A stretch of 64,000 nt of DNA, from the IMG/VR virus record IMGVR_UViG_3300009703_002976, positions 1,903-65,902 of that record. The stretch is one strand, 5' to 3'. This DNA is from a virus. Positions 2-48,619 of the stretch are shown in pieces. Each line of letters begins with the position of its first letter. Position 1 is the stretch's first letter. Both the position numbers and the translations under genes were made by a program. Under the pieces are notes generated by a model. It was given only the letters and a program-made list of their open reading frames with translations. It was not told where the DNA came from and made no database searches.

Positions 2-169
2 CAAGGGTCAGCATATTCTGTTATGTGGGAAGAAATGACTGGCATATCTATACCTTATATCGCAATAATTATTGCTGTAGCAGATGAAATGCCACAGATT
101 TTTATTGAACACAGAGATAATTGGATCGATAAGTTTATAGAGATTAGAAATAATTATGATAACACTTAA
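2..169 (+). CDS. 3' end of PD-(D/E)xK (Cas4-like) exonuclease of T4-like phages (partial, starts before window)
   Basis: Not in the ORF track. Frame 2 reads QGSAYSVMWEEMTGISIPYIAIIIAVADEMPQIFIEHRDNWIDKFIEIRNNYDNT* (TAA 167-169), matching the remembered Q-x-x-AY-x-x-M-x-EE-x-TG...II...Q-x-F pattern of this family. Confidence 0.6.
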   Translation, partial: QGSAYSVMWEEMTGISIPYIAIIIAVADEMPQIFIEHRDNWIDKFIEIRNNYDNT

Positions 170-1295
170 TCTTGATGAGATCAAAAGAAAACCACAATTA
201 TTATCAATATTAGAAGAATTGAAACATGAAAAAGATTCAATTTTACTATTTGATATGCCCGAAGGATCAAGATTATGGCCATTAGACGAAGAAGAAGACT
301 TTTCTTATATTTTATTTTCAAAAGCACATGAAATTTTACAATATCACAAATTTGATGTTTGGTATTTGTGTTCTGATGTAAATATTAAGACCAGATATAC
401 AAAATGGTGTAAAAAAGTAGGTGTTGAAAAAAAGTTTAATGTATTATATTTTCCATTTACTGTTAGATTAGATGTTATTGATTATATCAAACAAGAACAC
501 GTTGATTCTCTCGCCAATATTCCTAAGAAAAAAAATTTTATACAATTAATTTGTAATCCTGATGTTTCTAGAATAGCAACTGTTAATCGTTATTATAAAC
601 ATCTAAATTATGAATATTCTTTAGTTCCTCAGTTTCATAATGATCATGAAAATAATTTTGATATAAAAAATAGAATACTTACAGAAATTGAATTGTCTGA
701 TATATGGATTAATGATGTTGATGGAGGTAAAGAGTTAAAAGATTGGGAAACAATTACTGTAAATAATAAAAAACTTAATAAATATATTTTTAATGCATTT
801 CTTCCTAAAGAAAGTTTTGAATCTTGTTGTGATGTAGTATTAGAAACTTATTTAGATGGTCCACTTTATTTTACTGAAAAAACATGGAAACAATTTTTGT
901 TTCAAAAGCCTTTTATTATGATAGGCACAAAAGGTATTAATCATTATTTACAAGATTTAGGATTTGAATTATATGATGAAATTTTTGATTATGATTATGA
1001 CTTAGAAGATAATAATATAAGAAGATTAGAGGGGTTTTGGACTCAAATAGAACGATATTTAGACCTTGATGTTTCTGATTTTGAGAAGAAACTTATTATA
1101 TTGAAAAAAAAGCTAATACATAATAGAAATACCTACATTAAATGGATATCAAATATAGATAACGTATTAAATGATCATCGACCAGAATATGATGAGTTGG
1201 CTCATTATTTCTATCTTTATTCTACTTTTTACGAAAAAGAATATTTACCAGATAAGGGGTTTAACATAATTAAAAAAATTTGTTTGGGGTGTTAA
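156..1295 (+). CDS. Putative glycosyltransferase-like protein (GT10/GT-B-like 'E..F.TEK' family), paralog 1
   Basis: C-terminal ETY...YFTEKTWK...KPFIMIG...LGFELYDEIFDYDYD block shared with 11009 and 27179; resembles the ENS..Y.TEK donor-binding motif of GT10. Confidence 0.5.
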   Translation: MITLNLDEIKRKPQLLSILEELKHEKDSILLFDMPEGSRLWPLDEEEDFSYILFSKAHEILQYHKFDVWYLCSDVNIKTRYTKWCKKVGVEKKFNVLYFPFTVRLDVIDYIKQEHVDSLANIPKKKNFIQLICNPDVSRIATVNRYYKHLNYEYSLVPQFHNDHENNFDIKNRILTEIELSDIWINDVDGGKELKDWETITVNNKKLNKYIFNAFLPKESFESCCDVVLETYLDGPLYFTEKTWKQFLFQKPFIMIGTKGINHYLQDLGFELYDEIFDYDYDLEDNNIRRLEGFWTQIERYLDLDVSDFEKKLIILKKKLIHNRNTYIKWISNIDNVLNDHRPEYDELAHYFYLYSTFYEKEYLPDKGFNIIKKICLGC

Positions 1296-1981
1296 TGGAT
1301 TATGATTTTACAATAAGTAGTCATTGTAACGCCGCATGTCCTTCTTGTAAGAGATATGAAAGTCACAATAATCCGATTAATTTATATAATGAACCTTTGC
1401 ATCCAGGATTAAATCAAATTCATATGGATTTTGATGAATTTAAATATATTATTGAAAGAGATATTAATTTATTTAAAAACAAACTTGTAACATTTGAAGG
1501 TGAACTTGGGGATCCTATGGTTCATCCACATATAAAATCTTTTATAAATTTTAGTACAGGTGTTTTTAAAAAATTAAAAATAGTTACTAATGGTGGAATT
1601 AGAAATGCAAAATTTTTTAATGATTTGGGAAATACATATAATAATTTAGAAATTATGTTTTCTATAGATGGTCTAGAAGATGATTTAAATGGGTTGTATA
1701 GAGTAAAAGTAAATACTAAAAAAGCAATTGGTAATATGGTTGCATTTGCTAAAAGTAAGTATGGAAAATCATGGGGAGTGAGTTGGCAATATCTTATTTT
1801 TGAACACAACTGGTTTGAAATACCAGAAGTTTTAGATTTTGCAAAATTATACAATATACCTATTGTATTAAAAATAAATACTCGACCTAAATTTAGAATA
1901 GAAGATAGATTAATACCTAGTGTTGTTAAACAATATGAAAAAAATAAATTTAAATTAAGCAATCTTGTTTTAGCGAATTAA
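1295..1981 (+). CDS. Radical SAM protein (core domain only, no SPASM)
   Basis: CNAACPSC motif, GELGDP, TNGG, FSIDG, WQYLIFEHN. ATG 1295 overlaps the previous TAA (track start 1280 is a TTG). Confidence 0.9.
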   Translation: MDYDFTISSHCNAACPSCKRYESHNNPINLYNEPLHPGLNQIHMDFDEFKYIIERDINLFKNKLVTFEGELGDPMVHPHIKSFINFSTGVFKKLKIVTNGGIRNAKFFNDLGNTYNNLEIMFSIDGLEDDLNGLYRVKVNTKKAIGNMVAFAKSKYGKSWGVSWQYLIFEHNWFEIPEVLDFAKLYNIPIVLKINTRPKFRIEDRLIPSVVKQYEKNKFKLSNLVLAN

Positions 1982-2670
1982 TGTTACCTGCAGAAACTTT
2001 TATATACAATTTTGAAATTACATCGTATTGTAATGCTGATTGTCCTAGTTGTTTTAGAACAATGAATAAAAGTAAATTGCCACTTAGACATTTAAAAGTT
2101 GAAGATTTCGAATTTTTAATATTAAACAATATAAATTTTATAAAAAATAATCGATACGAAATACAAATTGCAAAATTTTGTGGAGAAGTTGGAGATCCTC
2201 TGTTACATCCTAAGATTGATCAATTAATTGGTATAGCTGAAAGTGTGTTTAATAGAGTTGAAATTTATACAAATGGTGGACTTAGAAATACAACTTGGAT
2301 AAAAAATCTATTTAGACGATATGGAAAAACTCGTTTTGTGTTTGGTATTGATGGATTGTCTGATGAAACAAATCAAATGTATAGAGTTAATGTGAGAACT
2401 GATATTGCATTAAAAAATATGATTGAATCTGCAAAATATAGACCTACTAGATGGGAATATACGATATTTAGTCACAATTATTTAGAATTATTTGATGTGA
2501 TAATGTTTGCAAAAAAACACGACTTAAAGTTATTATGTAGATTTAATGGCCGAACTTTTAATAAACTTGATGATGAAAATATAGTTAAGTGTGAAACATT
2601 ACTTAAAAAACATAATACAGACTATTACATATGCAAAGAAGATGTGAGAATGAAGAAGAAATTAAAATAA
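1981..2670 (+). CDS. Radical SAM protein (core domain only)
   Basis: CNADCPSC, CGEVGDP, TNGG, FGIDG; TAATG coupling with the upstream gene. Confidence 0.9.
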   Translation: MLPAETFIYNFEITSYCNADCPSCFRTMNKSKLPLRHLKVEDFEFLILNNINFIKNNRYEIQIAKFCGEVGDPLLHPKIDQLIGIAESVFNRVEIYTNGGLRNTTWIKNLFRRYGKTRFVFGIDGLSDETNQMYRVNVRTDIALKNMIESAKYRPTRWEYTIFSHNYLELFDVIMFAKKHDLKLLCRFNGRTFNKLDDENIVKCETLLKKHNTDYYICKEDVRMKKKLK

Positions 2671-2936
2671 AATGTGATTTTTATAATTATGAATCTGCTA
2701 GTTGGAGTCAATATGAAATAGATTTAGATTTAAATGTATTTCCTTGTTGTCATTATTATATGGACCACACTTTAACTAAAAAACCTAATAAGCATATTAG
2801 TCATATAGATAATAGTCTTAAAACCAATTCTTTAAATAATATTTTTAAAGAATATGATAAAGTATTAAATGAAAAACTTTGGAAAAATAAAAAAACATGT
2901 CCTCCTCTTTGTATGAAAATTTGCCGAAAAAAATAA
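2631..2936 (+). CDS. Stand-alone SPASM/twitch-type Fe-S domain protein
   Basis: C...YEIDLDLNVFPCCHY...CPPLCMKIC resembles the C-terminal domains of fused rSAMs 34477, 35450 and 42064. Confidence 0.7.
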   Translation: MQRRCENEEEIKIKCDFYNYESASWSQYEIDLDLNVFPCCHYYMDHTLTKKPNKHISHIDNSLKTNSLNNIFKEYDKVLNEKLWKNKKTCPPLCMKICRKK

Positions 2937-3256
2937 ATAATAATCAACATAATTTACCTGAAGAATTTGAAGATTTGGTTTATTGTATAGGATGGCATGA
3001 ACATAAAAAATGGGCAGAAGTTGAAATAGCATCTGATTTTTCTGTATATCCTTGTTGTGCTTTACATGCAGAGCATCAATTAAATAAAAGATTCTTAGAT
3101 AAAAAATTAGATAGTTTTGATAAGGAATGGAATAATTTAAAGAAACATAAATTGAAAGATATCTTAAAAATATGGAGAGAACATATTAAACCAGAATTTT
3201 GGAAAAAAGAAAAAACATTACCCGAATGCTGTAAAACATTATGCAAGATAAAATAA
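2897..3256 (+). CDS. Stand-alone SPASM/twitch-type Fe-S domain protein
   Basis: YC...VEIASDFSVYPCC...LPECCKTLC; paralog of 2631..2936. Confidence 0.7.
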   Translation: MSSSLYENLPKKINNNQHNLPEEFEDLVYCIGWHEHKKWAEVEIASDFSVYPCCALHAEHQLNKRFLDKKLDSFDKEWNNLKKHKLKDILKIWREHIKPEFWKKEKTLPECCKTLCKIK

Positions 3257-4047
3257 TAATATTTGGAGATAGTTTTGCAGATCCTGCAGACAGAAAATAC
3301 GAAAATAAAAATGTAACAACGTGGTATGAATTTTTGAAATCAGATTATAAAATAACAAATCATGCTTTATCTGGTACAGGTCCTCACTATTCATTTAAAG
3401 AATATTATAATTTTATTTCTAGTGATAATAATAAAGAAGAGTATATTTGTATTTTTTTATTAAGTGGAGAAGATAGAATTCATTTCTATAATGCTGATCC
3501 CCAAACTATTACACATATTAATTGGAACTTTGATAAAAAAGAAAGTTGGTGGGCAGAAGATTCAAATTTAACGAAACAAAAAATATATTATGATACATTT
3601 AAATCTGAAATTGATTTTTTCTTTTTAACAATGCATGATGAATTAAAATGGTCTAATTTTAAAAATTTAGGATTCCTTTATATGAATTCTTTATTATTAA
3701 ATATGAAAACATTTGTATTTTGTACTTATGGTATTAAAATATTAAGTGGAATGGGTAATTTTTTAAATCTTACGCAACTTAATAATTCAAATTTTTATTT
3801 ATATCCAACTGAATTGGGATATATTGCTCATCAAGAATTTGTTGATTTAGAAACTGCTGGTGGTTATGATTTTGTAGATTATAGAAGAAATCATTTATCA
3901 CAAGAAAATCATAAAGTTTTATATGAAAATATAAAAAAAATGATTAAAAATGATTATGAATATATTCCGTTTGTTAAAAATATAAATCATTCTCAAAATC
4001 TTGGACAATTTCGTAATTCAAAAACAGGAAAATTTATTTATGAATAG
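3241..4047 (+). CDS. SGNH/GDSL-like hydrolase or acyltransferase, paralog 1
   Basis: N-terminal IFGDSF, G-x-G-P block, C-terminal NHLSQENH, ends FIYE. Confidence 0.65.
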   Translation: MQDKIIIFGDSFADPADRKYENKNVTTWYEFLKSDYKITNHALSGTGPHYSFKEYYNFISSDNNKEEYICIFLLSGEDRIHFYNADPQTITHINWNFDKKESWWAEDSNLTKQKIYYDTFKSEIDFFFLTMHDELKWSNFKNLGFLYMNSLLLNMKTFVFCTYGIKILSGMGNFLNLTQLNNSNFYLYPTELGYIAHQEFVDLETAGGYDFVDYRRNHLSQENHKVLYENIKKMIKNDYEYIPFVKNINHSQNLGQFRNSKTGKFIYE

Positions 4048-4903
4048 ATTATTTGTTTTTGGAGATAGTTTTAGTCATCCAAATAGAGTTGATATTGATA
4101 AATTGCCTTTATGTGAGTTTATTGATGATAAATTTTTTACATTTTATCGTATAGTAGCAGAAAAGTTAAAAGCTGAATGTTATAATTTTTCATTAAGTGG
4201 TTCTGGCCCACAATATACAATGCTTAAATTTCATCAGGCTTTGTATCATTATAAATTTAAAAAAAATGATTATATAGTTTTATTATTGTCAGATCCTAGT
4301 AGAGATTATAACCCTATAGAAAATGATATAGAAGAAGTAAAATATGTTGAATTAGGGGACAGACCTCATTATGGATTTGAAAATATAAGAAATCTTATAT
4401 ATCTTCAATATATGTCAAAATATTTTTTTCCAGAAGTCAAGTTTTTTTGTAATGTTATATGGAAAGAAAGTTCATTTTTTGAAGGTGAATATTATTCAAG
4501 TAGAGAAGGTGAATTTGGAATACACCAAAATGATTTTCCATCTAAAGATTTTAAATTTGAAAAGTTATATAATTTAAATGATAGTAATAATTGGTTTTAT
4601 TTGTGCGATTGTGAATTAGGTATTATTCATATGAAAGAATTTAAAAAAAAATACAAGATTTATATGTCTCATGAACGATTGCATTTTACACACAATGAAG
4701 ATTCACAATTTAAAGTAAAAGCAGAAGTCAATGATAGTAGAGTAAATCATATGAGTCAAAGAACTCATAATACTTTTGCTAATATTATTTTGGATTTTTT
4801 TATTAATAATAAAAGACCTATAAATACTGATAATTTTTTCGAAACTGGTTTTTTAGATTATGATGATCCACATTTAATTCCACAGGAATTTATATATGAA
4901 TGA
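4040..4903 (+). CDS. SGNH/GDSL-like protein, paralog 2
   Basis: VFGDSF, SGSGPQY, NHMSQRTH, ends FIYE. ATG 4040 has an upstream AGGA (track start 4001). Confidence 0.65.
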   Translation: MNRLFVFGDSFSHPNRVDIDKLPLCEFIDDKFFTFYRIVAEKLKAECYNFSLSGSGPQYTMLKFHQALYHYKFKKNDYIVLLLSDPSRDYNPIENDIEEVKYVELGDRPHYGFENIRNLIYLQYMSKYFFPEVKFFCNVIWKESSFFEGEYYSSREGEFGIHQNDFPSKDFKFEKLYNLNDSNNWFYLCDCELGIIHMKEFKKKYKIYMSHERLHFTHNEDSQFKVKAEVNDSRVNHMSQRTHNTFANIILDFFINNKRPINTDNFFETGFLDYDDPHLIPQEFIYE

Positions 4904-5630
4904 TTTTCATATTTTTGGAGATAGTTTTGGGGAAAATCCATTACATAGTGATTCTCCTGAATTTTGCTGGTTCAATAATTTAAAATTAAAAGTTGATGGA
5001 ACAGTTTTTAATTATTGCTTAGGATGTACTGGTCCAATAGAAAATTTAAAACTGCTTCTAGAAAAAAAATTAAAAGATACTAATATAATATTTTTGTTAT
5101 CTATAAAATACAGAATACCATTTCCTTTTTCGAAAGAACGTGGTCATAGTGAAGATTTTAAAGAAATTCATGATTCTCGCACTTCTCCTAGAAAAGAAGT
5201 TAATTATGCACTAGAATGGTTATATGAAATTGATATGGTTTATAACATGTTTGGAGATGAAATAGAAATGTCTCCTTTCTTATGTATATTATATTTACAT
5301 TTTTATGCTTTAAAAAATAATTGTAAAATATTGATTTTTTTATGTGATCCAAATGATGTTGCAAATGAAAATTATTTTTATTTTAATAATGAACATTTTA
5401 AAGTACATAGAAAAAATATTTGGCATATGAGTCAAGAAGAATTTCGAAACAGAATAATTGATCCTATTGAAGAAGAAAAAAGAGTTTCGCATATAAGTGA
5501 ATGTAATCATACAATCATGTTTAATATTATTTTAAATTTTTTTATGAATACTTCTTATAATGAATCATTTTATCAAAATTTATATGACGGATCAAAAGAA
5601 AAAATAAAAAATAGATTTATTTATGATTGA
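4896..5630 (+). CDS. SGNH/GDSL-like protein, paralog 3
   Basis: IFGDSF, GCTGP, SHISECNH, ends FIYD. Confidence 0.6.
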   Translation: MNDFHIFGDSFGENPLHSDSPEFCWFNNLKLKVDGTVFNYCLGCTGPIENLKLLLEKKLKDTNIIFLLSIKYRIPFPFSKERGHSEDFKEIHDSRTSPRKEVNYALEWLYEIDMVYNMFGDEIEMSPFLCILYLHFYALKNNCKILIFLCDPNDVANENYFYFNNEHFKVHRKNIWHMSQEEFRNRIIDPIEEEKRVSHISECNHTIMFNIILNFFMNTSYNESFYQNLYDGSKEKIKNRFIYD

Positions 5631-6315
5631 AAAAATAGAATACGATACTAAAAAATATAATTTTGTTAAAGTTTTTCAAGAATATTTTGAAGAAGATTTA
5701 ACAAAATTACATAAAAAACTTCAATTTGAACGTGAATTTTCGGAAATGGCAGGAGGAACAGAAGAGTTTGAAGTAGTATCACAAACTTATACAGATGTTA
5801 TTAAAACTTTAGCTTTTAATGATTTATGGATTGAATTTGTTGAAAATGTTATTAAATCATATTTTGATAATAAATCTATTTACATTCAAAAACTTCCTTC
5901 TTTTAGAATATTTCCTGCAGGACATTCTGTAAAATATGTTGAAAATACAACTGATGGATATAATAAACATTTAGATGCAGAGCCTCCTTATTATCATCCT
6001 AAATTTGAGAGCAGTTTTTGGATACCATTGACAGAATGTAATTATTTAAATGATTTTTATTATCAAGATGAATATGGATCATATCGAAGAGCAGATATAC
6101 GTATAAATGAATTGCTAATTTTTAGTAGTGATGTGATACATGGAAATAGTGTACATAATAAATCTTCTCAAACTAGATGTTCTTTGGATTTTAAAGGTTT
6201 AGCAGTAGATGATTATGATGAAACTATGTTGAGTGATCAAATGATTTTAAAAAGAGGCTCACCATTTAAACAAAAAGATTGGTATAGTACAAAACATTAT
6301 TATATGGAAATGTGA
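5623..6315 (+). CDS. 2OG-Fe(II) dioxygenase, StrG-like
   Basis: QKLPSFRI, HLD (HxD), FWIPLT, distal HG..HN, TRCSLDF. Confidence 0.65.
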   Translation: MIEKIEYDTKKYNFVKVFQEYFEEDLTKLHKKLQFEREFSEMAGGTEEFEVVSQTYTDVIKTLAFNDLWIEFVENVIKSYFDNKSIYIQKLPSFRIFPAGHSVKYVENTTDGYNKHLDAEPPYYHPKFESSFWIPLTECNYLNDFYYQDEYGSYRRADIRINELLIFSSDVIHGNSVHNKSSQTRCSLDFKGLAVDDYDETMLSDQMILKRGSPFKQKDWYSTKHYYMEM

Positions 6316-7328
6316 TGGACGTTAATTCTCATAATGATTGGGATTCTCTTGAAGAAATAATTGTAGGTCGTGCAGATTTTGCACATATTCCTCCAGTGGA
6401 TTCTTCAATGAAAAATTTCATGTTTGCAAATCTGTCAAATGAAGAAATAAAAAAACATGTTGGATCATATAATCAGGATCTTCTTAAAGAAGCAAATGAG
6501 GATCTTGATATTTTATCTGAAGTATTGGAAGATTGTGGAGTTGTAGTTCATAGACCAGAAAGAACACAACATCATCAGCGAATTCAGACTCCAAAATGGA
6601 GAACTACTGGTTGGCATAATTATTGTCCCAGAGATATTTTTTTAATTTTGGGAAATAATATTATCGAAGTTCCTAGTGTTATGAGAAGTCGGGTGTTTGA
6701 AACTTGGTCTTATAATACAATTTTACACAAAGCATTTGAAGATGGTGCAAGATGGTTTTCTGCACCAAAGCAAATTATTAAAGATGAAAGTTTTGATTTT
6801 TCAGATTTATCAAAACCAACATTAATGAACAATGAGATTCTTTTTGATGCCCCTAATGTAATAAGAATTAATAAAGATTTAATTTTTCAAATAAGTAATA
6901 GTGGGAATGAAAAAGGAGCCGAATGGTTAGAAAGAATGTTTCCTGAATATAAAATTCATATTGAACATGATGCATATTCAGGCGCCCATTTTGATAGTAC
7001 AATAATTCCTTTAAGAGAAGGACTTGTATTATTAAATGGACTAAGATGTAATCAAGATAATTATCCTAAATTTTTTGATGATTGGGAAAGAATATTTTTT
7101 ACTGATATTATTTCAACTAATTCTGAAGACTCTGGAATATCAAGCGATTCAATTGGATTAAATTTATTAAACATTAATCCCAATTTAGTCATTGTTGATG
7201 AAAATCAAAAACCATTAATAAAAATTTTAGAACAATATAAAATAGATAGTATACCTTTATCTATGAAACATGCAAGAACATTAGGCGGTGGTTTCCACTG
7301 TGTAACATTGGATTTAAAGAGAAAATGA
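6315..7328 (+). CDS. Amidinotransferase (glycine / inosamine-phosphate amidinotransferase family)
   Basis: NSHNDWDSLEEIIVG, CPRD, FDAPN, HFDST, GGGFHCVTLDL with the catalytic Asp/His/Cys. Confidence 0.9.
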   Translation: MDVNSHNDWDSLEEIIVGRADFAHIPPVDSSMKNFMFANLSNEEIKKHVGSYNQDLLKEANEDLDILSEVLEDCGVVVHRPERTQHHQRIQTPKWRTTGWHNYCPRDIFLILGNNIIEVPSVMRSRVFETWSYNTILHKAFEDGARWFSAPKQIIKDESFDFSDLSKPTLMNNEILFDAPNVIRINKDLIFQISNSGNEKGAEWLERMFPEYKIHIEHDAYSGAHFDSTIIPLREGLVLLNGLRCNQDNYPKFFDDWERIFFTDIISTNSEDSGISSDSIGLNLLNINPNLVIVDENQKPLIKILEQYKIDSIPLSMKHARTLGGGFHCVTLDLKRK

Positions 7329-9106
7329 AACAAGTAGGATTTCTTGAACTTTCTCATATTTTCACAAATCAAGTAAAATTACCATATTCTACTGGATGTA
7401 TTTGGAGCTATTGTAAAACAGATGAAGAAATTTCAAATAATTATTCTTTTGATATTCATGATTGGTACTATGTACTTGATGGGTCTTTTGATGTTTCATC
7501 CACAGCTAGGAAACTCGCTGAATGTGATATTATAGGAGTATCATATTTTGTATGGAATACTCATACAAGCGATAGAGTTAGTGCAGAAATAAAAAGACTT
7601 AATCCCGCTTGTAGAATAATATATGGAGGATTGGGTACCCCTAAGTATGGTAGATGTCAAGAATTTTTGAATGATCGACCATATATTGATGCTATTGTAC
7701 ACAATGAAGGAGAATTAGTTTTTGCAAACCTCTTAAAGAATGATGACTGGTCTAAAGTTAACGGAATTACAACTCATTCTTTTCAAACTCCCCTTGCAAA
7801 TAGAATAAAAAATATTTCTGAAATGCCTAGTCCATATCTTGATGGGCTCTTTGATAATTTAGTTGCTACTAAAGATCATGATTATGAATGGGAAAGTTTA
7901 ATTGAACTTGAACGAGGATGTCCATATACTTGTACTTTTTGTGAAGTTGGAGATAGACATTGGACTAAAGTTATTAAACAAGATTATGATAAGATGGTTA
8001 AAGAAATAAATTGGATTTCAGATCATAAGATTGATTATCTACATTTAATCGATAATAATTTTGGAATGTATAAAGAACATAAAATTATATCAGATTTATT
8101 GATTGATAAATTAGAAACAAAAGGTTATCCAAATGCATTAAATATTACTTGGGCAAAACATAAAAAACCTTATCTTTTTGATATTGCCGAAGATTTGTGG
8201 AAAGTGGGTCTGAATAAAAGTGTAACTCTTGCCTTACAGTCCACTAATTCTTCTACTCTTAAAGCAGTTGAACGAGCAAATGAAAATACAAATTTGGAAC
8301 AGGTTATAGCTTATTTAAAAAAGAAAGGAATGCCTGCGTATATTGAGACTATTTTAGGATTACCAGAAGAGACTTTAAGTAGTTTTAAAGAAGGATTATA
8401 TAGATTGATTGATGATATAGGATATCATAATTATATTGGAATTTATACTATGGTAGCGTTACCAAATACACCATTTGGTGATCCCGAATATTTAAAAAAA
8501 TATGGAGTAAAGATAGTTAAAACTGCTCCTTGTTTTTTTCATCATGAACATCCTTCAGAAAAACTTATGGAAGATACAAATGATGTTGTTATTGGTTCTA
8601 GTGTTATGTCTTATGATGATTATTTAAAAGCATGTGGTTGGAAATGGTATATGATATCTGTTCATTTTCTTGGTTGGTTAAGAGTTCTTGCAATAGATTT
8701 AAAAAAGAAACATAATATTACTCATAGACAATTTTATGATGATTTATTTAATTGGTCTATACAAAATTCGTCTACTTTATTATATAAAGAATATTATGTG
8801 ACAATGAGATTATTAAATAAAGTATTTAAAAAAGAAATTCCTTGGGGAAGAAAAGTAAAAGGAGCTTCTGACATTTATTGGGAATATGAAGAAGCAACAG
8901 GTATTTATATCGCAAAAAACAAAAAAAGATTTTACAATGAAATCGGTGATTTTTTGGAGAATACATATAATAGTAGATATCCCGTATTAGTAAAAAAACA
9001 ATCAGACAAAATGCTTGATCCATTTCTTGTATATGAGGGAGATTTAGAAAAATATGCAAGAGAATGTTTGTGGTGGGGCAGACGAGCAGAAAGATTTTTT
9101 GTATGA
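7325..9106 (+). CDS. B12-binding-domain radical SAM protein (putative methyltransferase)
   Basis: N-terminal Rossmann-like domain (IGVSYFVWN, IIYGG, EGE), RGCPYTCTFC, DNNFG, ILGLPEET. Confidence 0.85.
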   Translation: MKQVGFLELSHIFTNQVKLPYSTGCIWSYCKTDEEISNNYSFDIHDWYYVLDGSFDVSSTARKLAECDIIGVSYFVWNTHTSDRVSAEIKRLNPACRIIYGGLGTPKYGRCQEFLNDRPYIDAIVHNEGELVFANLLKNDDWSKVNGITTHSFQTPLANRIKNISEMPSPYLDGLFDNLVATKDHDYEWESLIELERGCPYTCTFCEVGDRHWTKVIKQDYDKMVKEINWISDHKIDYLHLIDNNFGMYKEHKIISDLLIDKLETKGYPNALNITWAKHKKPYLFDIAEDLWKVGLNKSVTLALQSTNSSTLKAVERANENTNLEQVIAYLKKKGMPAYIETILGLPEETLSSFKEGLYRLIDDIGYHNYIGIYTMVALPNTPFGDPEYLKKYGVKIVKTAPCFFHHEHPSEKLMEDTNDVVIGSSVMSYDDYLKACGWKWYMISVHFLGWLRVLAIDLKKKHNITHRQFYDDLFNWSIQNSSTLLYKEYYVTMRLLNKVFKKEIPWGRKVKGASDIYWEYEEATGIYIAKNKKRFYNEIGDFLENTYNSRYPVLVKKQSDKMLDPFLVYEGDLEKYARECLWWGRRAERFFV

Positions 9107-10418: not shown

Positions 10419-10424
10419 AAGTAT

Positions 10425-40499: not shown

Positions 40500-41259
40500 T
40501 CTTAGATTTGTATTTCCAGTAAATCAACCTGGACTTGGTGATAGATTTATCATGACTTCAAATATTCTTTATGCTAGAAAAGAAGTTGAGCATGAATGTT
40601 GTATTATTGATATTTTTCTTAAAAATATCAAGCCAAGTAAGAATTATGAGTTTGATCAAAAACAATATTTAAATCTTACAGATTTTTATGATATTATAGA
40701 TTTTTTTCATTTTAAAAGACCAGATAAAAGTGAACCATTAATAATTTCAAATATAATAGATGAAGAACCTCCTCCATTTCATGCCAGCACAGGTCACCGT
40801 AATATTGAGTATGAAATAACAAATAATGAATATAAGAGAAGCCACAATTTTCTTTATAATCGAGAACAATATTGGCCTATAAATTATGATAAAACTATAA
40901 AAAAAGATATTATAACATTTATGTTTTATGTAGATGATTCATTACCCGAACATAAATTTATTACAGTAGAGGAAGAAAAAGAATTTCAATTATTAAAAAC
41001 GAATTTATCATCATTTAATTTTCATCGTTTAGAAGATTTTAATTTTAAAAAAAATGTAGAATTATTATCTAGAAGTAAGTTATTAATATCATCAGAAGGA
41101 ATGTGGACACATCTTTCAAGAGCAATGGATATTGATACTATTACGATTTCAAGAGATTCTAAGTTTATTAAAGAATTTACTCGACAAGGTTATTTTTGTT
41201 CTGGAATTCAAGAATGTTTAAATGAATTAGAAAAAAGATGTCATGAATCACAGGTCTAG
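40480..41259 (+). CDS. GT-B (GT9-like) glycosyltransferase-like protein, tandem copy A
   Basis: PGLGDRFIM and SEGMWTHLSRAM resemble the GT9 GxGD and DSG..HLA.A motifs. Confidence 0.45.
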   Translation: MNRKKNNLRFVFPVNQPGLGDRFIMTSNILYARKEVEHECCIIDIFLKNIKPSKNYEFDQKQYLNLTDFYDIIDFFHFKRPDKSEPLIISNIIDEEPPPFHASTGHRNIEYEITNNEYKRSHNFLYNREQYWPINYDKTIKKDIITFMFYVDDSLPEHKFITVEEEKEFQLLKTNLSSFNFHRLEDFNFKKNVELLSRSKLLISSEGMWTHLSRAMDIDTITISRDSKFIKEFTRQGYFCSGIQECLNELEKRCHESQV

Positions 41260-42112
41260 TTATTGGGAAACAGGTTATTTTAAAAAAAAGAATCTTAGAT
41301 TTGTATTTCCAGTAAATCAACCTGGACTGGGTGATAGATTTATCATGGCCTCAAATATTCTTTTTACTATGAAAGAAGTTGAACACGAATCTTGTATTGT
41401 TGATATTTTTCTTAAAAACACAAAGACGGTGCATAAAAGCCAGTATTTAAATCTTATAGATTTTTATGATATTATAGATTTTTTTCATTTTAAAAGACCA
41501 GATGAAAGTGAATCATCAATAATTACAAATATAATAGATGAAGCTCCTCCTACATATAAAGAGATATTGGCTTCAAAACGAAAAAATATTACAGGTGATG
41601 TTGCTTGTCATGATTTTAATTCTAGATATAATGAATATGTTATAAGTAATTATTTTCTTTATAACGAAGCACGATATTGGCCTATAAATTATGATAAAAC
41701 TGCAAAAAAGCAACTTATAACATTTATGTTTTATGTAGATGATTCAGTACCCGAACATAAATTTATCACAACAGAGGAAGAAAAAGAATTTAATAAGGTA
41801 AAAGATTATTATGGACATTATTTTCATCGACATGAATATTATTTTGTTCGTTTAGAAGATTTTAATTATAAAAGAAATATAGAATTATTATCTAAAAGTT
41901 TGTTTTTAATAGCATCAGAAGGAATGTGGACCCATTTATCTAGAGCAATGAAAGTTAATACCATAGCATATTCTAGGGATATTACTTTTATTGAGGAATT
42001 TAATAAACAGGGACATTTTTGTTCTGGATTTTTTGAAAAATGTTTAATTGAATTAGAAAAAAAATGTATAGAATTAAAAAAGAAGAGCAACTTTATAAGT
42101 TTGAAGAGATAA
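41243..42112 (+). CDS. GT-B (GT9-like) glycosyltransferase-like protein, tandem copy B
   Basis: Same motifs; long near-identical DNA blocks with copy A. Confidence 0.45.
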   Translation: MNHRSSYWETGYFKKKNLRFVFPVNQPGLGDRFIMASNILFTMKEVEHESCIVDIFLKNTKTVHKSQYLNLIDFYDIIDFFHFKRPDESESSIITNIIDEAPPTYKEILASKRKNITGDVACHDFNSRYNEYVISNYFLYNEARYWPINYDKTAKKQLITFMFYVDDSVPEHKFITTEEEKEFNKVKDYYGHYFHRHEYYFVRLEDFNYKRNIELLSKSLFLIASEGMWTHLSRAMKVNTIAYSRDITFIEEFNKQGHFCSGFFEKCLIELEKKCIELKKKSNFISLKR

Positions 42113-43131
42113 AACATATACATTTTGAACCTACGCAAAGATGTCAGGCGGCGTGTCCTATGTGTGATAGAACTAATAATCCACATATAAAAAATGCTGA
42201 ACTTTCTATAGAACAATTTAAACAAATTGTAAATGCTAATTTAGCAAAACAATTAAATAGTTTTCTTATGTGTGGTAATCATGGAGATCCTATGATTGCA
42301 AAGGATACCCTTGAAATGTTTGACTGGTTACGCTATAATAATAATGAACTATATCTTCATATGACTACAAATGCTGGAGGACGATCTGATGATTGGTGGA
42401 AAAGACTTGCGGAAATTTTTGGTGATTATGGAAAAGTATCTTTTTCAGTAGATGGTTTAGAAGACACAAATCATTTATATCGAGTAAATGTAGATTGGAA
42501 TCGTGTTGAAAATTCAATGGATGTTTTTACTCAAGCAGGAGGAAAAGGTTATTGGGTATTTTTAATATTTGAACATAATGAACATCAAGTAGAAGAAGCA
42601 GAACGAATGGCTAAATTATTTGGACTTGAATTTGTGAGAAAAAAGTCTGGAAGATGGGTGCAAAGTTATAAAAATAAGAAAATTGACAAAAAGATAACCA
42701 CTAAGGGGAATGAGATTAAGCCACCAGCTAATCCAGAGAATCAGAATAAGAGTGTTAACAGTTATGATAAATTGATTAAAAGTCATGGTTCCTTTCAAGA
42801 GTATTTAGATAAAACAAAAATAAAATGTAAGTCAATAGATACTAAAGAAATTTTTATTTCAGCAGAAGGTCTTGTGACTCCTTGTTGTTGGACTGCTGGA
42901 AAATTATATAAAGTATATGAAAAAATAGGACAAAATCAAATATGGTCTTATATAGATGATATTAAAAATATTAATGCTTTATATAAACCTTTAAATGAAA
43001 TTATTGAAGGAGATTTTTTTAAAAAGATTAAACAATCTTGGAATTTGCCTTCTTGTTCACAAGGAAAATCAAAAGTTTGTGCAGAGAAGTGTGGTACTGA
43101 TTTTAACGCATTTGCAGATCAATGGAAATAA
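42064..43131 (+). CDS. Radical SAM/SPASM protein
   Basis: CQAACPMC, CGNHGDP, TNAG, FLIFEHNEHQ; C-terminal C...TPCC...CAEKC. Confidence 0.92.
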   Translation: MYRIKKEEQLYKFEEIKHIHFEPTQRCQAACPMCDRTNNPHIKNAELSIEQFKQIVNANLAKQLNSFLMCGNHGDPMIAKDTLEMFDWLRYNNNELYLHMTTNAGGRSDDWWKRLAEIFGDYGKVSFSVDGLEDTNHLYRVNVDWNRVENSMDVFTQAGGKGYWVFLIFEHNEHQVEEAERMAKLFGLEFVRKKSGRWVQSYKNKKIDKKITTKGNEIKPPANPENQNKSVNSYDKLIKSHGSFQEYLDKTKIKCKSIDTKEIFISAEGLVTPCCWTAGKLYKVYEKIGQNQIWSYIDDIKNINALYKPLNEIIEGDFFKKIKQSWNLPSCSQGKSKVCAEKCGTDFNAFADQWK

Positions 43132-43844
43132 AAATTAATTGTCTTAAATGGGGAACAAAATATGATTCTTCATATGTTAATAGAACATATGGTGGGTTAT
43201 TAAAACATTGTAATGAATCATTTCATTTCGTTTGTTATACTGATAATCCTAAGGGAATATCTTCTAAAATTGAAACAAAAGATATTGAAGAACTTAGACC
43301 ATATAATACAAATATGATGTTTACATATGAAAAATTAATGCTGATAGACAAAGACGAATATGATAAGAATCTCTGGATAGATTTAGATGTATTAGTACAT
43401 GAAAATGTAACTGAATTAATAACAAGAAAGCATAATAATATTACATTTATATGGAATTATTGGAATGATTATGAAAAAATAAGTTTATTTAATTTTGGTA
43501 GGGGAGTTTCTTGTCATGTAAATTCTTCATTTGTTGCATGGGATAAGGGAACAGCTTCTTGGCTTTTAAAATATACTAAAGAAAATTGGAAAAAAATAGA
43601 ATGGACATATAAAAGTCTTGATAAGTATTTGTTTTATCAACATTACAGAAATAATAAAATTAATTTATGGGAAGATGGATTTTTTTCAAATTATAATAAA
43701 GAAAATTATAAATTAAAAAATAAAGTAACATTATTTAATACATCACATCTTTATAACAATAAAAATATGAAAGAAATTAAACATTACGAATTAGATGAAT
43801 CACCAGTACAGGAATTATGGAAAAGTTATTCTCTTGGGTTGTAA
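43122..43844 (+). CDS. GT-A nucleotide-diphospho-sugar transferase-like protein
   Basis: CLKWGTKY, CYTD, WIDLD (DxD), NSS. Confidence 0.65.
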   Translation: MEIKINCLKWGTKYDSSYVNRTYGGLLKHCNESFHFVCYTDNPKGISSKIETKDIEELRPYNTNMMFTYEKLMLIDKDEYDKNLWIDLDVLVHENVTELITRKHNNITFIWNYWNDYEKISLFNFGRGVSCHVNSSFVAWDKGTASWLLKYTKENWKKIEWTYKSLDKYLFYQHYRNNKINLWEDGFFSNYNKENYKLKNKVTLFNTSHLYNNKNMKEIKHYELDESPVQELWKSYSLGL

Positions 43845-44236
43845 ATCATGAAAAAATTTCTGTATTATGTTGTCCAAGTTTTAAATTTATTAAAACATTA
43901 AAAGGACTGGATATGGAGATTGATAATATAAATTATGATATTAATTTTAGAGATATGCCAAATGTGATTTGTAAAGATTTTGTATTTGATAATGTTAAAT
44001 TATATAATTGTGTATTGCATTATAATTGTGAGAAAACATATCCTGTGGGACGAATGCATGAAGGAATTTTTATATTAAGGGGTGATGATAAAGAACATAA
44101 TGGTGATTGTAATCCTATTCATTCGATTGATAAATTAATAGATGATAATGAATTGACAGAAGTTTTTGATTCATTTGAAATACAAAGTAAAAATAAAAAA
44201 TACAAACATTATTGTGTATATGGAACAAATCTATAA
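43817..44236 (+). CDS. Hypothetical protein
   Basis: In-array ORF, 139 aa; NCEK weakly parallels the NTSSEH of the next gene. Confidence 0.45.
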   Translation: MEKLFSWVVNHEKISVLCCPSFKFIKTLKGLDMEIDNINYDINFRDMPNVICKDFVFDNVKLYNCVLHYNCEKTYPVGRMHEGIFILRGDDKEHNGDCNPIHSIDKLIDDNELTEVFDSFEIQSKNKKYKHYCVYGTNL

Positions 44237-44990
44237 TTGGAGAAAAAATAAAAACGATATAAGTTTGCACAATATTGAAATAGGTTCTTATAATGAAAAG
44301 ATTGGAGAACTTAAAGAAGAAATAGGTTCTATTAGAGAGACTATTGGAGAACATAGAGAACAAATTTCTATATGTGAAAATGATAATAGAGAAACACCAT
44401 ATTATTGGGTCAATCAATGGGTTAATAATAATTTGCCTTCATATTCTAATAGTTTTGAAGACTCTGTATCTCAAGGACAATATGAATCTAAATTATGGTT
44501 AAATGAAAAATTAGAAAAATTTATTTCTATGCCAGAACTTCATATTGATATTATCGGTTCTTGGTTTGGATTTCCTTTAATAGAAATGTTAGCAAATGCG
44601 TTTGATATAAAACAAATAGATTTATATGATATTGATGAGGATTGTCATAAAGTAACTGCTCAATATATAAATCATTTTGATTGTGATTTTAAAATAGTGC
44701 AATTTAAAGATTTTTTTGAACGTAAAGAAATGAGAAGAAGACATTTAATTATTAATACATCATCTGAACATATGTCTGATATAGTTCTTATGAAAGAATA
44801 TTATAAAGATTATCCAGTAAAACCTATTTTAGCAATACAATCAAATAATTATTTTGATGTTGAAGATCATATAAATTGTGTAAAAGAGGTTGATGAATTA
44901 ATAGAAAAAAATCAAATTAAAAATGTTTTGTATAAAGGAAAACGTTCTTTGCCATTATATGATAGATTTATGGTGATAGGTAAATGGTAG
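44220..44990 (+). CDS. Class I SAM-dependent methyltransferase-like protein
   Basis: SKLWL, DIIGSWFG (motif I-like), DLYDID, INTSSEHM, QSNNY. Track start 44166. Confidence 0.55.
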   Translation: MEQIYNWRKNKNDISLHNIEIGSYNEKIGELKEEIGSIRETIGEHREQISICENDNRETPYYWVNQWVNNNLPSYSNSFEDSVSQGQYESKLWLNEKLEKFISMPELHIDIIGSWFGFPLIEMLANAFDIKQIDLYDIDEDCHKVTAQYINHFDCDFKIVQFKDFFERKEMRRRHLIINTSSEHMSDIVLMKEYYKDYPVKPILAIQSNNYFDVEDHINCVKEVDELIEKNQIKNVLYKGKRSLPLYDRFMVIGKW

Positions 44991-45553
44991 TTATTGTTCT
45001 TGTACGCACAGGAAGTAAATATGATGAATGGTATGAAAATAATATCATTTATATGATACGTAAATTTGGAGAAATGAAAAGATGTGAATATTATATTATA
45101 AGAGAGGGAGAAGGTAGTGTATATGATAAACTTAAAATGTTTAAGGAATGTACTGATGATGTAAATTATTTATATTTTGACTTAGATATTATTATTAAGA
45201 AGCCCATAGACTATTTAATTAAAGATGATTTTACACTTGTTAATGCTTGGTGGAGGGCGCCATTTCATACTCCTTTGAATTCTTCAATAATGTCATGGAA
45301 AGGAAATTATTCTCATATTTATGACAAATTTTATGAAGATGAAGATTATAGCAGAGTAAAATATTGGAAAGGTATTGATGAATATATTTACAAAGAAATG
45401 GAGTATAATACTTATGATGATAAAGTATGTTGGTCTTATCCCTGGAATAGACAAGAATTAGATTATTCTATTTGTTTGTTCAATCATGAATTTGCTCCTG
45501 CAATGAGAATAAAAGGATGGATGGAAAAATATGTGTTATTAGAAACTTCTTAA
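44984..45553 (+). CDS. GT-A transferase-like protein (paralog of 43122)
   Basis: RTGSKY, LYFDLD, NSSIMSW. Confidence 0.6.
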   Translation: MVVIVLVRTGSKYDEWYENNIIYMIRKFGEMKRCEYYIIREGEGSVYDKLKMFKECTDDVNYLYFDLDIIIKKPIDYLIKDDFTLVNAWWRAPFHTPLNSSIMSWKGNYSHIYDKFYEDEDYSRVKYWKGIDEYIYKEMEYNTYDDKVCWSYPWNRQELDYSICLFNHEFAPAMRIKGWMEKYVLLETS

Positions 45554-46050
45554 CAGAAGAAGAATGTTTTAATTTTATTATAACTTATAGAAAAAAAGTT
45601 CGGCGAGCCGGAGTTATAAATGAAGAATTTTCTGATTATCGAAGATCAAAAGTTTTTATTTGGCATAAAGATTCTTTTTTAGAAAACAAATTTAATTGTT
45701 CTAATATGATATTTCAATTTTCAGAATATTCTAAATTAAATTATTATCATTGGCATAATGATTTTAATACTACTCAATCGGAGCGTAAAAGAATAGAAAC
45801 ATGTGTGGTGCCTTTAAATGAGGAATATCAAGGAGGTCTTTTTGAAATTAAAGATCAAGATCCAATTGAATTAAATGTAGGAGATTGTCTTAGATTTGAT
45901 TCAAAATTAGAACATAGAGTTAATCCTGTATTAAAAGGAAAAAGATATTCTTTAACTGCTTGGGTTATTGAACAAAAGTCAATAAAACATTATTTTGAAG
46001 ATGAAATTTATAAACATCTTGTAATTGCAAACGATTTGGAATTAATATGA
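45517..46050 (+). CDS. 2OG-Fe(II) oxygenase (prolyl 4-hydroxylase-like)
   Basis: YYHWHND, YQGG, HRVNPV.KG.RYSL.AW. Confidence 0.88.
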   Translation: MDGKICVIRNFLTEEECFNFIITYRKKVRRAGVINEEFSDYRRSKVFIWHKDSFLENKFNCSNMIFQFSEYSKLNYYHWHNDFNTTQSERKRIETCVVPLNEEYQGGLFEIKDQDPIELNVGDCLRFDSKLEHRVNPVLKGKRYSLTAWVIEQKSIKHYFEDEIYKHLVIANDLELI

Positions 46051-47126: not shown

Positions 47127-47901
47127 AATAACTATTATAATTCATACATGTGATGAATACAGTCATTTTTGGGATGGTTGGTATACCATGTTCGATCATT
47201 TTGGATTTTTAGATTTAGGATGGCCCATACATTTTTGCAATGAAGAAGTAGATTTGCCTTTTAATGATCAGAGAATAACTCAGATTAAAACAGGTAAAAG
47301 TAAAAAGTATATGGGAGTTGAATGGAGAGAATGGTTACCTACTTTTGGGGGACCTAAACAAGTTGATGAAGGATGGAGTGATAGACTTATAGCATCTTTA
47401 AATTCAACTCAAACAAAGTATGTTTTATACATGCAAGAAGATCAATGGCCTTTTAAACAGATTAATGTAAATTTATTTAATAAATTATTAAATTTCGTAT
47501 CTATTCATGATATAAATGGATTAAGATTACATCGACTTATATCTTCTTATGATCTAAATGAATTTGAAGAAACAGACTATTATATAGACAATAAAAAAGT
47601 TTTAAGAGTCAAAAGGGATGCCGGTTTTTTATTATGTCATCAACCTACTATTTGGAATAAAGACTTTTTATTAGATGTGAGTATTCATGGAGAAGGGTTT
47701 AGAGATAATGAATATGCTGGAAGTGAAAGAGTTAGAGAAAAATATAAAGATCCAAAAATTTTTGTATATAATCATCATTGGTTTTTAGAAAAATCTGCTT
47801 CTTCTGCTGGTTTATGGATACCAGAAATTGAATGGGAATATAGAGAAGTTGCAAGAGAACGTGATGTTTATAAACATTTTAATATGATTAAAAATGAATA
47901 A
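47113..47901 (+). CDS. GT2-like glycosyltransferase-like protein
   Basis: IIHTCDEY, WSDRL, YVLYMQED, HQPTIW. Confidence 0.55.
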   Translation: MHQNKITIIIHTCDEYSHFWDGWYTMFDHFGFLDLGWPIHFCNEEVDLPFNDQRITQIKTGKSKKYMGVEWREWLPTFGGPKQVDEGWSDRLIASLNSTQTKYVLYMQEDQWPFKQINVNLFNKLLNFVSIHDINGLRLHRLISSYDLNEFEETDYYIDNKKVLRVKRDAGFLLCHQPTIWNKDFLLDVSIHGEGFRDNEYAGSERVREKYKDPKIFVYNHHWFLEKSASSAGLWIPEIEWEYREVARERDVYKHFNMIKNE

Positions 47902-48619
47902 AACAAAAGTTTTTGCAGTTAGAATAGGCGACAAGTATGGACAAGATGTAGAAAATTACATTGAATCCAAAATTTCAAATGTAACTTGGATTCGTGATGA
48001 ATTACCAGATGTAAAATTACAATGGAATAAGTTACGAGTTATGAATATGGACATAGATGAACCTGTTCTTGTGATTGATATAGATATGCTTTTTATGAAT
48101 GATTATGTTAAAGCAATAGATTATCCAATTAAAAAAGGTGAATTTTTAACTGCAAAGTCTTGGTGGAAAGATACTTGGAATGAAAATTATTCTTTATGTG
48201 GGGGATTTCAAAAATATTATCCAAAAGATTGTAAATACATTTATGATGAATTTATGAGTGATATTGATTATTGGTCACAATATTATATTACACGTAAAAT
48301 AACAATTGGACCAGTTAATGGAGAGCAATATTTTGTAGAAGATCAAGTAAAGAATCGACTAAAATTAAAATATCTTCCAGAAACATGGATGTCTAGGATG
48401 TGTAATAAAAATGATTTAGAAGAACTTGCTTTAATAAATTCTCAATATCCAGGAGAATATGTTTATTTAGATGGGTTTCATAATGATATCAAAATAATAC
48501 ATTTTAAAGATTATGAAATAGATTATTCTTTTTCTTCTGGATATAGTTCCGCATCTCTTTCTGCTTCAACATCAGGTGTTTCTTCTTCACCTTCACCCTC
48601 ATTAAGAATTTCAGAATAA
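47894..48619 (+). CDS. GT-A transferase-like protein (paralog of 43122/44984)
   Basis: RIGDKYG, WNKL, VIDIDM (DxD), GEQ, IIHF. Confidence 0.6.
   Translation: MNKTKVFAVRIGDKYGQDVENYIESKISNVTWIRDELPDVKLQWNKLRVMNMDIDEPVLVIDIDMLFMNDYVKAIDYPIKKGEFLTAKSWWKDTWNENYSLCGGFQKYYPKDCKYIYDEFMSDIDYWSQYYITRKITIGPVNGEQYFVEDQVKNRLKLKYLPETWMSRMCNKNDLEELALINSQYPGEYVYLDGFHNDIKIIHFKDYEIDYSFSSGYSSASLSASTSGVSSSPSPSLRISE

Follow-up and report, generated by a model that had tools for sequence, protein, structure and literature searches.

The 64,000-nucleotide stretch of viral DNA analyzed here (hereafter, the window) comprises bases 1903-65902 of the 87,167-bp linear IMG/VR record IMGVR_UViG_3300009703_002976, whose completeness was estimated by CheckV at 39%. 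It contains an island of 58 co-directional open reading frames (ORFs) on the plus strand (156-48619), among them 14 genes for predicted radical S-adenosylmethionine (rSAM) enzymes and many genes for other tailoring enzymes. Glycans or nucleotide sugars were the best-supported class of substrate, and there is about an even chance that the island encodes soluble enzymes that tailor nucleotide-activated sugars and then transfer them onto a macromolecule. Coordinates are given as window positions, o-numbers denote the ORFs of the window (71 in total), and all island genes are on the plus strand. The record under study is referred to as G000, the related records as G001-G003 and G004:C1, and contigs with homologous loci by L-numbers.

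Adjacent island ORFs overlap at 51 of the 57 junctions, by 1-98 nt. The largest gap is 186 nt, and gaps of at least 30 nt number seven in the whole window, with three touching the island. An earlier note on this DNA had described about 58 co-directional, overlapping genes between T4-like flanks, with 14 rSAM enzymes and two free SPASM proteins among their products. Each of these points was borne out, the flanks by genes for gp59, gp32, and baseplate proteins and the SPASM proteins by o4 and o5 (2631-3256). The CxxxCxxC motif was located near the start of the core in all 14 rSAM proteins, and 13 of them exceeded the PF04055 gathering threshold of 29.5 bits (30.1-58.4 bits). The remaining protein, o2 (1280-1981), scored 20.1 bits, below this threshold; with 36% BLASTP identity to its neighbor o3 (1981-2670), it is evidently a clear paralogue of the latter. 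When the longest ORFs were taken, the starts of four rSAM genes differed slightly from those in the earlier note (including 1280 for 1295, 32178 for 32268, and 35417 for 35450), and the others agreed.

Judging by sequence, the 14 rSAMs can be assigned to at least four subfamilies. Five of them exceeded the curated cut-off of 170 bits for NF033640 (N_Twi_rSAM, twitch domain-containing radical SAM protein), namely, o39 (397.5 bits), o42 (235.6), o47 (208.8), o22 (201.6), and o45 (198.8); the other nine scored at most 47 bits. In these N-terminal-twitch (N-twitch) proteins, residues C15, C33, C97, and C100 are invariant ahead of the CxxxCxxC motif at 153-160 (alignment A2). The o22 gene is located at 17481-18671, and o47, which contains an insert, at 38970-40499. 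The o39 gene opens a conserved trio with o40, encoding a PP-loop/QueC-like amidotransferase, and the rSAM gene o41 (30103-33404), and this order is repeated in contig L047. The trio is followed by o42 and o45 with o43 and o44 between them (33401-37719). The last two belong, together with o29 and o50, to a group with C-terminal SPASM/twitch domains, in which a split module (1280-3256) was also placed. In this module, the rSAM cores o2 and o3 are followed by the SPASM-like proteins o4 (2631-2936) and o5 (2897-3256); the order o2-o5 is kept in contigs L068-L072 at 72-80% identity, with dN/dS values of 0.25-0.40. The best NCBIfam matches of o41, o46, and o3 were viperin-type enzymes, and these matches were weak. 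The large rSAM o11 (7325-9106; PF04055, 50.5 bits) resembles cobalamin-dependent C-methyltransferases. This is a resemblance only, as o11 scored 214.7 bits against the KedN5 family NF033712, whose cut-off is 700, and 19.5 bits against the B12-binding domain PF02310, below the cut-off of 32.1.

The most conserved core rSAM, o46 (37716-38783), has four invariant C-terminal Cys residues and is twitch-like in this region (alignment A7). Its AlphaFold2 (AF2) model (pLDDT 85) was nearest to the solved structures of BlsE (Z 16.6, 279 residues aligned), SkfB (15.7), MoaA (14.9), and DesII (14.5), and AbmM and viperin were also among the high-ranking neighbors. BlsE is a cytosylglucuronate decarboxylase. 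The alignment to the BlsE, DesII, and MoaA folds extends over the whole length of o46, including the C-terminal auxiliary-cluster domain, at 10-16% sequence identity. BlsE, DesII, BtrN, MoaA, and viperin are twitch-domain rSAMs that act on sugar nucleosides or nucleotides; the likeness of o46 to them lies in the predicted fold, in which peptide maturases score nearly as high.

According to the proposed mechanism, host sugar phosphates or ulosonic acids would be activated by the phage NTP_transferase, encoded upstream of the island, and by o30 (23679-24350), a CTP_transf_3 protein of the CMP-sugar synthetase type encoded inside it. The o30 gene lies between those for the rSAM-SPASM protein o29 and the class I/II aminotransferase o31 (Aminotran_1_2, 24301-25293), the three together spanning 22864-25293. 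The nucleotide sugars would then be aminated by o31 and by o14 (10425-11012; PF01041, 70.5 bits), a short DegT/DnrJ/EryC1-like pyridoxal phosphate (PLP) protein of 195 aa, which along its entire length shares 41% identity with ORF305 of cyanophage S-SCSM2R, also of 195 aa. The pentein/amidinotransferase-like paralogues o10 (6312-7328) and o37 (28434-29426) would amidinate or otherwise N-modify the nucleotide sugars; o10 is 36% identical to ORF309 of S-SCSM2R and 29% identical to gp086 of phage CP220, and o37 gave a weak match to the Pfam ADI family. Carbamoylation would be due to o17 (13145-14509), a NodU/CmcH-type carbamoyltransferase (PF16861, 179 bits; PF02543, 97 bits), and acylation or de-acylation to SGNH-like paralogues. 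The QueC-like PP-loop protein o40 (31523-32275; SGGADS motif and C-x13-C-x2-C-x2-C tail) would amidate a carboxylate, and methylation would be performed by o11, o53, and an FkbM domain. The rSAMs would add C-H chemistry beyond ordinary enzymes, namely, epimerization, deoxygenation, decarboxylation, C-methylation, and oxidation. The final transfer to a macromolecular acceptor would be carried out by o1/o15/o36, possibly o48/o49, and o61/o62.

The SGNH-like paralogues o6, o7, and o8 (3241-5630) and o16 (12244-13152) share the invariant motif residues G7-D8-S9, N41, G48, and H248/H254 (alignment A5), and a fifth member, o23 (18623-19366), was weak in a hidden Markov model search of the window ORFs. 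Membership in this family is motif-based, since Pfam gave only Lipase_GDSL at E 0.12; its Atlas neighbors were DUF6071/Lipase_GDSL, and a PDB sequence-profile search returned chance-level matches only. Two P4H-like 2-oxoglutarate (2OG)-Fe(II) oxygenases, o12 (9064-9702) and o55 (45517-46050), scored above the PF13640 cut-off with 56.1 and 55.7 bits, respectively, and two further 2OG-type candidates (22283-22867 and 25908-26336) fell under it. The Trp_halogenase o19 (15217-16452), a flavin-type (Trp-type) halogenase, is encoded together with the nitroreductase o18, with o20, and with o21, an AMP-binding fragment of 202 aa (14517-17493). The inventory in the earlier note was upheld for the two amidinotransferases (o10 and o37) and for the carbamoyltransferase, halogenase, two PLP enzymes, CMP-sugar synthetase, and QueC-like enzyme, all of which have Pfam/NCBIfam support. 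Its five SGNH proteins became four with a weak fifth, and its approximately seven Fe/2OG oxygenases became two, with two more below the cut-off. It had also stated that neither a scaffold synthase nor a peptide precursor was visible, and this held: profile searches of the window proteins revealed no polyketide synthase or nonribosomal peptide synthetase, no NeuB, and no KdsA, and no precursor ORF was found. Pfam searches at E≤1 with 34 unannotated proteins added almost nothing.

The putative transferases comprise proteins inside and just outside the island. The paralogues o1 (156-1295), o15 (11009-12247), and o36 (27179-28459), related by BLASTP, are probably glycosyltransferases (GTs) of the GT-B type, as indicated by predicted fold. 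At the sequence level, they were assigned to no family by Pfam, and a PDB profile search gave chance-level matches. The AF2 model of o15 (pTM 0.74) contains two Rossmann-like domains, and its top 50 PDB neighbors were all GT-B enzymes (Z 7.5-9.9). The tandem paralogues o48/o49 (40480-42112), which are 62% identical, contain the motifs GLGDRF and EGMWTHLSRAM, which recall GT9 heptosyltransferases; this assignment is tentative, and an hhalign comparison with the GT9 domain of o62 was negative (probability 1%). The GTs in the island with fold or motif support number three to five, where the earlier note had counted more than 10, and the clear GT domains are located just outside it, in o61 and o62 (50474-56540, plus strand). 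The domains found were GT4 and an FkbM methyltransferase in o61 and GT2, GT4, and a GT9/TibC-like domain in o62; a GT1 domain is also among the domains of this pair. Both proteins are conserved in G004:C1 at 86-87%. The GT4 and TibC/GT9-like part of o62 (53127-56540) is 35-36% identical to proteins of uncultured megaphages of 636-735 kb (LR756501/03/04), and Microcystis phage Mel-JY01 encodes a protein with 40% identity to the TibC/GT9-like portion alone.

As acceptor, a protein of the virion or of the host surface is most likely. Between the island and o61/o62, on the minus strand, lies o60 (49424-50377), a Ser/Thr/Asn-rich protein. Its Ser/Thr content of 25% (median, 10.5%) is the highest among the 71 window ORFs, its N-x-S/T sites are the densest, it is very low in Lys and Glu, and it had no match in GenBank phages. 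A late-promoter-like box, TATAAATA, was found at 50448-50460, approximately 70 nt upstream of the o60 start. From its composition, it may be speculated that o60 is a virion protein and a glycosylation acceptor. A sigma-70-like box, TTGACA-N17-TAAACT, was noticed by eye at 50388-50416 (plus strand) ahead of o61/o62; its orientation is divergent to that of the late-type box of o60. The virus-own soluble multi-domain enzymes of chlorovirus PBCV-1 (GT/methyltransferases of the A064R type) and of mycobacteriophages decorate virion proteins in the cytoplasm, and o61/o62 may be compared with them. These virion glycosylation systems are not known to contain rSAM enzymes.

In 57 of the 58 island proteins, no hydrophobic 19-residue segment scored above the threshold. 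Island proteins without clear membrane segments fit cytoplasmic chemistry on soluble substrates, and the lack of membrane components leans against an autonomous Wzx/Wzy-type pathway for a lipid-linked envelope polysaccharide; likewise, an initiating phosphoglycosyltransferase, a flippase, and a polymerase had no Pfam match among the island proteins. The proposal of the earlier note that the phage hypermodifies a macromolecule stands as far as a tailoring island with a glycan or nucleotide-sugar substrate is concerned. One of the targets it had named, the phage's own DNA, is disfavored by the evidence, as is an envelope glycan if made by an autonomous pathway.

The tailoring of nucleotide sugars is supported by the set of sugar enzymes (NTP_transferase, CTP_transf_3, the DegT-like protein, the carbamoyltransferase, the SGNH motifs, the GT-B fold, and the GT domains of o61/o62) and by enzymes with sugar nucleoside or nucleotide substrates among the structural neighbors of o46 (BlsE, MoaA, DesII, AbmM, and viperin). 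It is also supported by context, since related cassettes stand beside GT genes in three independent settings (CP220, S-SCSM2R, and a Bdellovibrionales metagenome-assembled genome, MAG). A number of observations weigh against it. NeuB and the KdsA/DAHP-synthase family were not found in the window proteins, so the activated sugars must come from host metabolites. No significant Pfam GT was detected inside 156-48619, and at E≤1 a single GT9 (E 0.11) appeared. The best neighbor of o15 was the T4 beta-glucosyltransferase, a DNA-modifying enzyme (Z 9.9, tied with many GT-B enzymes). The peptide maturase SkfB is within 1 Z of BlsE as a neighbor of o46, and SPASM/twitch enzymes are typical of pathways for ribosomally synthesized and post-translationally modified peptides (RiPPs). 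The NCBIfam equivalog cut-off of any characterized enzyme was reached by no island rSAM, and o60 is an acceptor candidate by composition only. Finally, evidence of transcription is weak, consisting of short contigs from four RNA libraries that map to o39, for which DNA carry-over is possible.

Of the other explanations, maturation of proteins or peptides is rather unlikely. According to this explanation, the rSAM/SPASM/twitch enzymes, 2OG hydroxylases, halogenase, and TibC-like transferase would modify residues of phage or host proteins, and sugars would be one decoration among several. The SPASM/twitch domains of the island are consistent with this, as are its P4H-like and Asp/Asn-hydroxylase-like oxygenases and Trp-type halogenase, weak NCBIfam matches to the peptide maturases HxsC, WgkB, ScmE/F, and PapB, and the presence of SkfB, PqqE, ChlB, anSME, CteB, and SuiB among the structural neighbors of o46 (Z 14-15.7). 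However, no short Cys/Ser/Gly-rich precursor ORF was present when all gaps and small ORFs were listed, and SNSSSSSF tags, poly-Ser tails, and CHxS/RGRR tails were not found in six frames of the 87-kb record. RiPP recognition element (RRE)/PqqD-like proteins, a protease, and an exporter gave no Pfam match in a set of which many proteins are unannotated and two were folded, and in bacteria the core module adjoins a GT2 gene, not a precursor gene. It is very improbable that there is no single pathway and that the genes are independent auxiliary metabolic genes boosting iron-sulfur or anaerobic-type metabolism of the host. Gene content does differ between relatives, an iron-sulfur carrier gene is present in some of them (PMC5332604), and metabolic boosting was proposed for CP220 by Timms et al. 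(PMC2853527). Nevertheless, the left and right blocks and a four-gene core remain syntenic to as little as approximately 50% identity and into bacteria, the genes are tightly coupled in translation, and no rSAM reached the cut-offs of the housekeeping equivalogs BioB, LipA, MoaA, and HemN.

Two further explanations, each of them improbable, concern other substrates. T4 glucosylates hydroxymethylcytosine, and the GT-B proteins and the rSAM/PP-loop enzymes could in principle hypermodify DNA or the nucleotide pool in a similar manner. The T4 beta-glucosyltransferase and another phage GT were the best structural neighbors of o15, the QueC-like o40 adjoins rSAMs, and viperin-type enzymes gave the best NCBIfam matches of o46, o41, and o3. 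Moreover, CP220, which has a related rSAM/amidinotransferase module, contains a 7-deazaguanine in place of G, with fully modified DNA (bioRxiv 10.1101/2023.04.13.536721). On the other hand, a ThyA-like hydroxymethylase was not found on this record or on the 161-kb G004:C1, and TGT/DpdA and QueD were not found on G000, G004:C1, or G001-G003 (G001 being 73% complete), with the limits that a divergent DpdA could escape PF01702 and that the records are incomplete (39% for this one). The o40 protein scored 26.8 bits against the QueC equivalog (cut-off 150.3), the match being confined to approximately the last 60 residues of QueC; the Z values of the beta-glucosyltransferase are tied with those of dozens of other GT-B enzymes; and the core module is also present in a bacterial chromosome beside GT2. 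Overall, these findings tend to speak against modification of the phage's own DNA. The other explanation is a diffusible small molecule resembling an aminoglycoside, aminocyclitol, or nucleoside antibiotic and acting on competitors, the host, or grazers. The set of amidinotransferase-like, DegT-like, B12-rSAM-like, 2OG, carbamoyltransferase, and halogenase proteins mirrors the tailoring in such pathways, the antibiotic-sugar rSAMs BlsE, DesII, and AbmM are near o46, and the S-SCSM2R homologues were labeled 'antibiotic synthesis genes' by their authors (PMC12801897). Yet genes for a cyclitol or scaffold synthase, an exporter, or self-resistance were not detected, acceptors of polymer or protein nature are suggested by the many glycosyltransferases together with the multi-domain o61/o62, a lytic phage leaves a short window for production, and the family matches are all far under the equivalog cut-offs.

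It is scarcely credible that the island is an artefact, either a host/phage chimeric contig or a set of decaying pseudogenes, which the earlier note had named as grounds for rejecting its proposal. The record is indeed an incomplete metagenomic contig, and o14 and o21 look like pieces of larger families. Nevertheless, GC content is uniform, 24-32% in the island (approximately 27%, as in the remainder of the record), with 28-39% in the flanks, and the transition from the island to o61/o62, gp59, gp32, and the baseplate genes recurs in the independent 161-kb assembly G004:C1. For a 10-kb stretch of the rSAM array, 64-99% of the 31-mers were present in each of 20 DNA sequencing runs, which came from at least six studies. 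Pairwise dN/dS values between the rSAM genes and their closest non-identical homologues were 0.08-0.31, and those of the other island genes tested were 0.10-0.47, including the short o14 (0.25), which is equally long in the cultured S-SCSM2R, and o21 (0.17). These ratios indicate that the island genes are under purifying selection. The shared junction, the 20 runs, and the dN/dS values show that the island is neither chimeric nor decayed.

Arrays of rSAM genes are widespread in ocean phages. Related IMG/VR records contained 11, 13, and 19-20 Radical_SAM matches (the last range in one record, in which domain splits are possible), and a 200-kb ENA contig contained at least 10 within 21 kb. Homologues of o39 numbered 3360 at E≤1e-10 and those of o46 4847 at E≤1e-5, nearly all on marine metagenomic contigs of up to approximately 400 kb; no match to o46 was found in 50,697 GenBank phage records. 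The synteny in related viral contigs, whose inspection the earlier note had suggested, is conserved for both a left block (o1-o6, o9-o12, o14, o17, and o19-o22) and a right block (o39-o58), and the two co-occur on the same long contigs. A core of four genes is kept to approximately 50% identity: the rSAM o46, the rSAM-SPASM o50, the class-I methyltransferase-like o53, and the N-twitch rSAM o39. In comparison with G004:C1, gp59 and gp32 are 98-99% identical, whereas island genes are 33-97% identical and some are swapped for paralogues. This strong variation in gene content between close relatives suggests diversifying selection at a phage-host or phage-defense interface.

The MAG labels Chloroflexota, Acidimicrobiaceae, and Flavobacteriales were rejected as evidence of a host because they come from mis-binned viral contigs; such long T4-like island contigs are L053 (PAAV01000055.1), L054 (PBYV01000081.1), and L055, and the 161-kb G004:C1 had been placed by mis-binning in a Chloroflexota MAG. 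A Bdellovibrionales MAG, G006 (JBKDHV01; 2.9 Mb, 47-52% GC), contains at least 12 NF033640 genes on seven contigs (C22, C30, C41, C104, C114, C135, and C141). On one of its contigs, with 48% GC, an F1 ATP synthase operon stands next to o46-like (54%), o53-like, o50-like, GT2, and o39-like (49%) genes, and at two loci N_Twi rSAM genes directly follow a GT2 gene. Among the related viral records, a thymidylate-synthase-family match with one in-frame TAA was observed at G001:C1:114820-115341; the gene is possibly broken or recoded.

Among known systems, the Campylobacter phages CP220/CPt10 (Firehammervirus) were reported in 2010 to carry 11-12 rSAM genes and an amidinotransferase in an 'interchangeable module' (PMC2853527). 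Like the carrier of the island, CP220 is T4-related, and its co-directional gp080-089 comprise five rSAMs, a pentein amidinotransferase, two GT-A-fold proteins, and a PAP2 phosphatase; gp080/081/083/084 are similar to o44 and o41 (E 1e-8 to 1e-26). However, its module is approximately 9 kb long, compared with 48 kb for the island, its host is Campylobacter, in another habitat, and in the stretch compared there was no match to N-twitch or B12-like rSAMs, the carbamoyltransferase, the halogenase, or the PP-loop protein. The cultured T4-like cyanophage S-SCSM2R has ORF305 (similar to o14) and ORF309 (similar to o10) amid glycosyltransferases and 2OG oxygenases (PMC12801897). In its ORF301-310, the genes for the DegT-like protein, rSAM, and amidinotransferase are surrounded by five annotated GTs, and the similarity of its rSAM ORF306 to o29 is weak (25%, E 4e-4, 110 residues). 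In contrast to the island with 14 rSAMs, it has one, with no N-twitch members and no o46/o50/o53/o39 core. The marine T4-like environmental genome TARA_ERS488813_N000010, described in 2017, contains approximately 12 rSAM genes with cas4-like and iron-sulfur-related genes (PMC5332604), and rSAM cassettes that differ between close relatives were described in 2020 in variable regions of pelagimyophages (PMC7029224). The genes were counted in those papers, and the likeness to the island is one of gene content; the island lies upstream of gp59/gp32 and not in the VrlC-gp14 'host recognition cluster'. The NF033640 family has o22, o39, o42, o45, and o47 as members and shares their N-terminal Cys pattern, but it is a sequence family without an assigned reaction. 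The earlier note had not recognized the pathway as described. That judgment applies to the chemistry, which remains undescribed; the existence of phage arrays of many rSAMs has been known from the papers of 2010, 2017, and 2020. The island is a large and well-preserved example of such arrays, in which the N-twitch array is joined by a left-hand amidino/carbamoyl/halogenase block and by the split rSAM/SPASM module.

It is possible, though on balance doubtful, that the N-twitch and o46-type rSAMs form a large class of radical sugar-editing enzymes that are paired with glycosyltransferases and shuffled as cassettes by ocean T4-like phages, yielding a glycan of combinatorially variable and chemically unprecedented structure on a protein of the virion or the cell surface. 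If so, this class would be a radical-chemistry counterpart of O-antigen diversification, operated by a virus in water that is oxic and poor in iron. This surface-ocean phage keeps 14 rSAM enzymes under purifying selection, although enzymes of this kind are sensitive to oxygen and demand much iron. Marine metagenomes contain thousands of homologues of the core enzymes, but for o46, the one tested, approximately 50,000 GenBank phage records gave no match; a very common viral function therefore still escapes experiment. Should virions or infected cells bear the products as glycans, consequences for host range, superinfection exclusion, grazing, or particle stickiness in the sea could follow, and the enzymes would offer a wealth of new radical carbohydrate chemistry. 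The mini-versions in CP220 and in Synechococcus phage S-SCSM2R are cultured entry points for experiments.

Among the other features of the island, the genes o50 (rSAM-SPASM), o51, o52 (whose product has seven Cys residues), and o53 occupy 42064-44990; a PDB sequence-profile search with the o53 family returned chance-level matches only. A small conserved ORF of approximately 68-74 aa is located in the only sizeable gap of the island (38759-38983). It is 47-80% identical in nine contigs, always beside rSAM genes, and its predicted product is helical and Cys-free. This ORF was considered as a peptide precursor and rejected, since in relatives it is a detached domain of a larger protein, corresponding in L001 and L003 to the N-terminal domain of an o48/o49-like protein.

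The downstream flank contains genes for the gp59 helicase loader, the gp32 single-stranded DNA-binding protein, a tape-measure-like protein, and homologues of the baseplate hub, tube, and DNA-end-protector proteins, with baseplate genes of the gp48, gp53, gp5, gp6, and gp8 types further downstream. On the same strand, the island is preceded by genes for the NTP_transferase, a Zn-ribbon protein, and a Cas4-like exonuclease, the last of these overlapping the first gene of the island, and the co-directional run extends beyond the window start. The gp32 protein is 54-65% identical to gp32 of cyanomyoviruses. The carrier of the island is an uncultured marine T4-like myovirus; its identification as a cyanophage was rejected, as psbA was absent from this record and the four related ones (five in all). 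The T4 late-promoter core TATAAATA was scarce across the window (8 copies, compared with 20.8 expected from shuffles), with two copies on the coding strand of the island, and no clear timing for the island emerged from the promoter scan. At 58342-60195, on the minus strand, a 617-aa protein is encoded that is Cys-free and Gly/Ala-rich and has three hydrophobic segments; it lies in a patch of 39% GC and gave no PHROG match, and its product resembles a tape-measure/baseplate-hub protein of the gp29 type.

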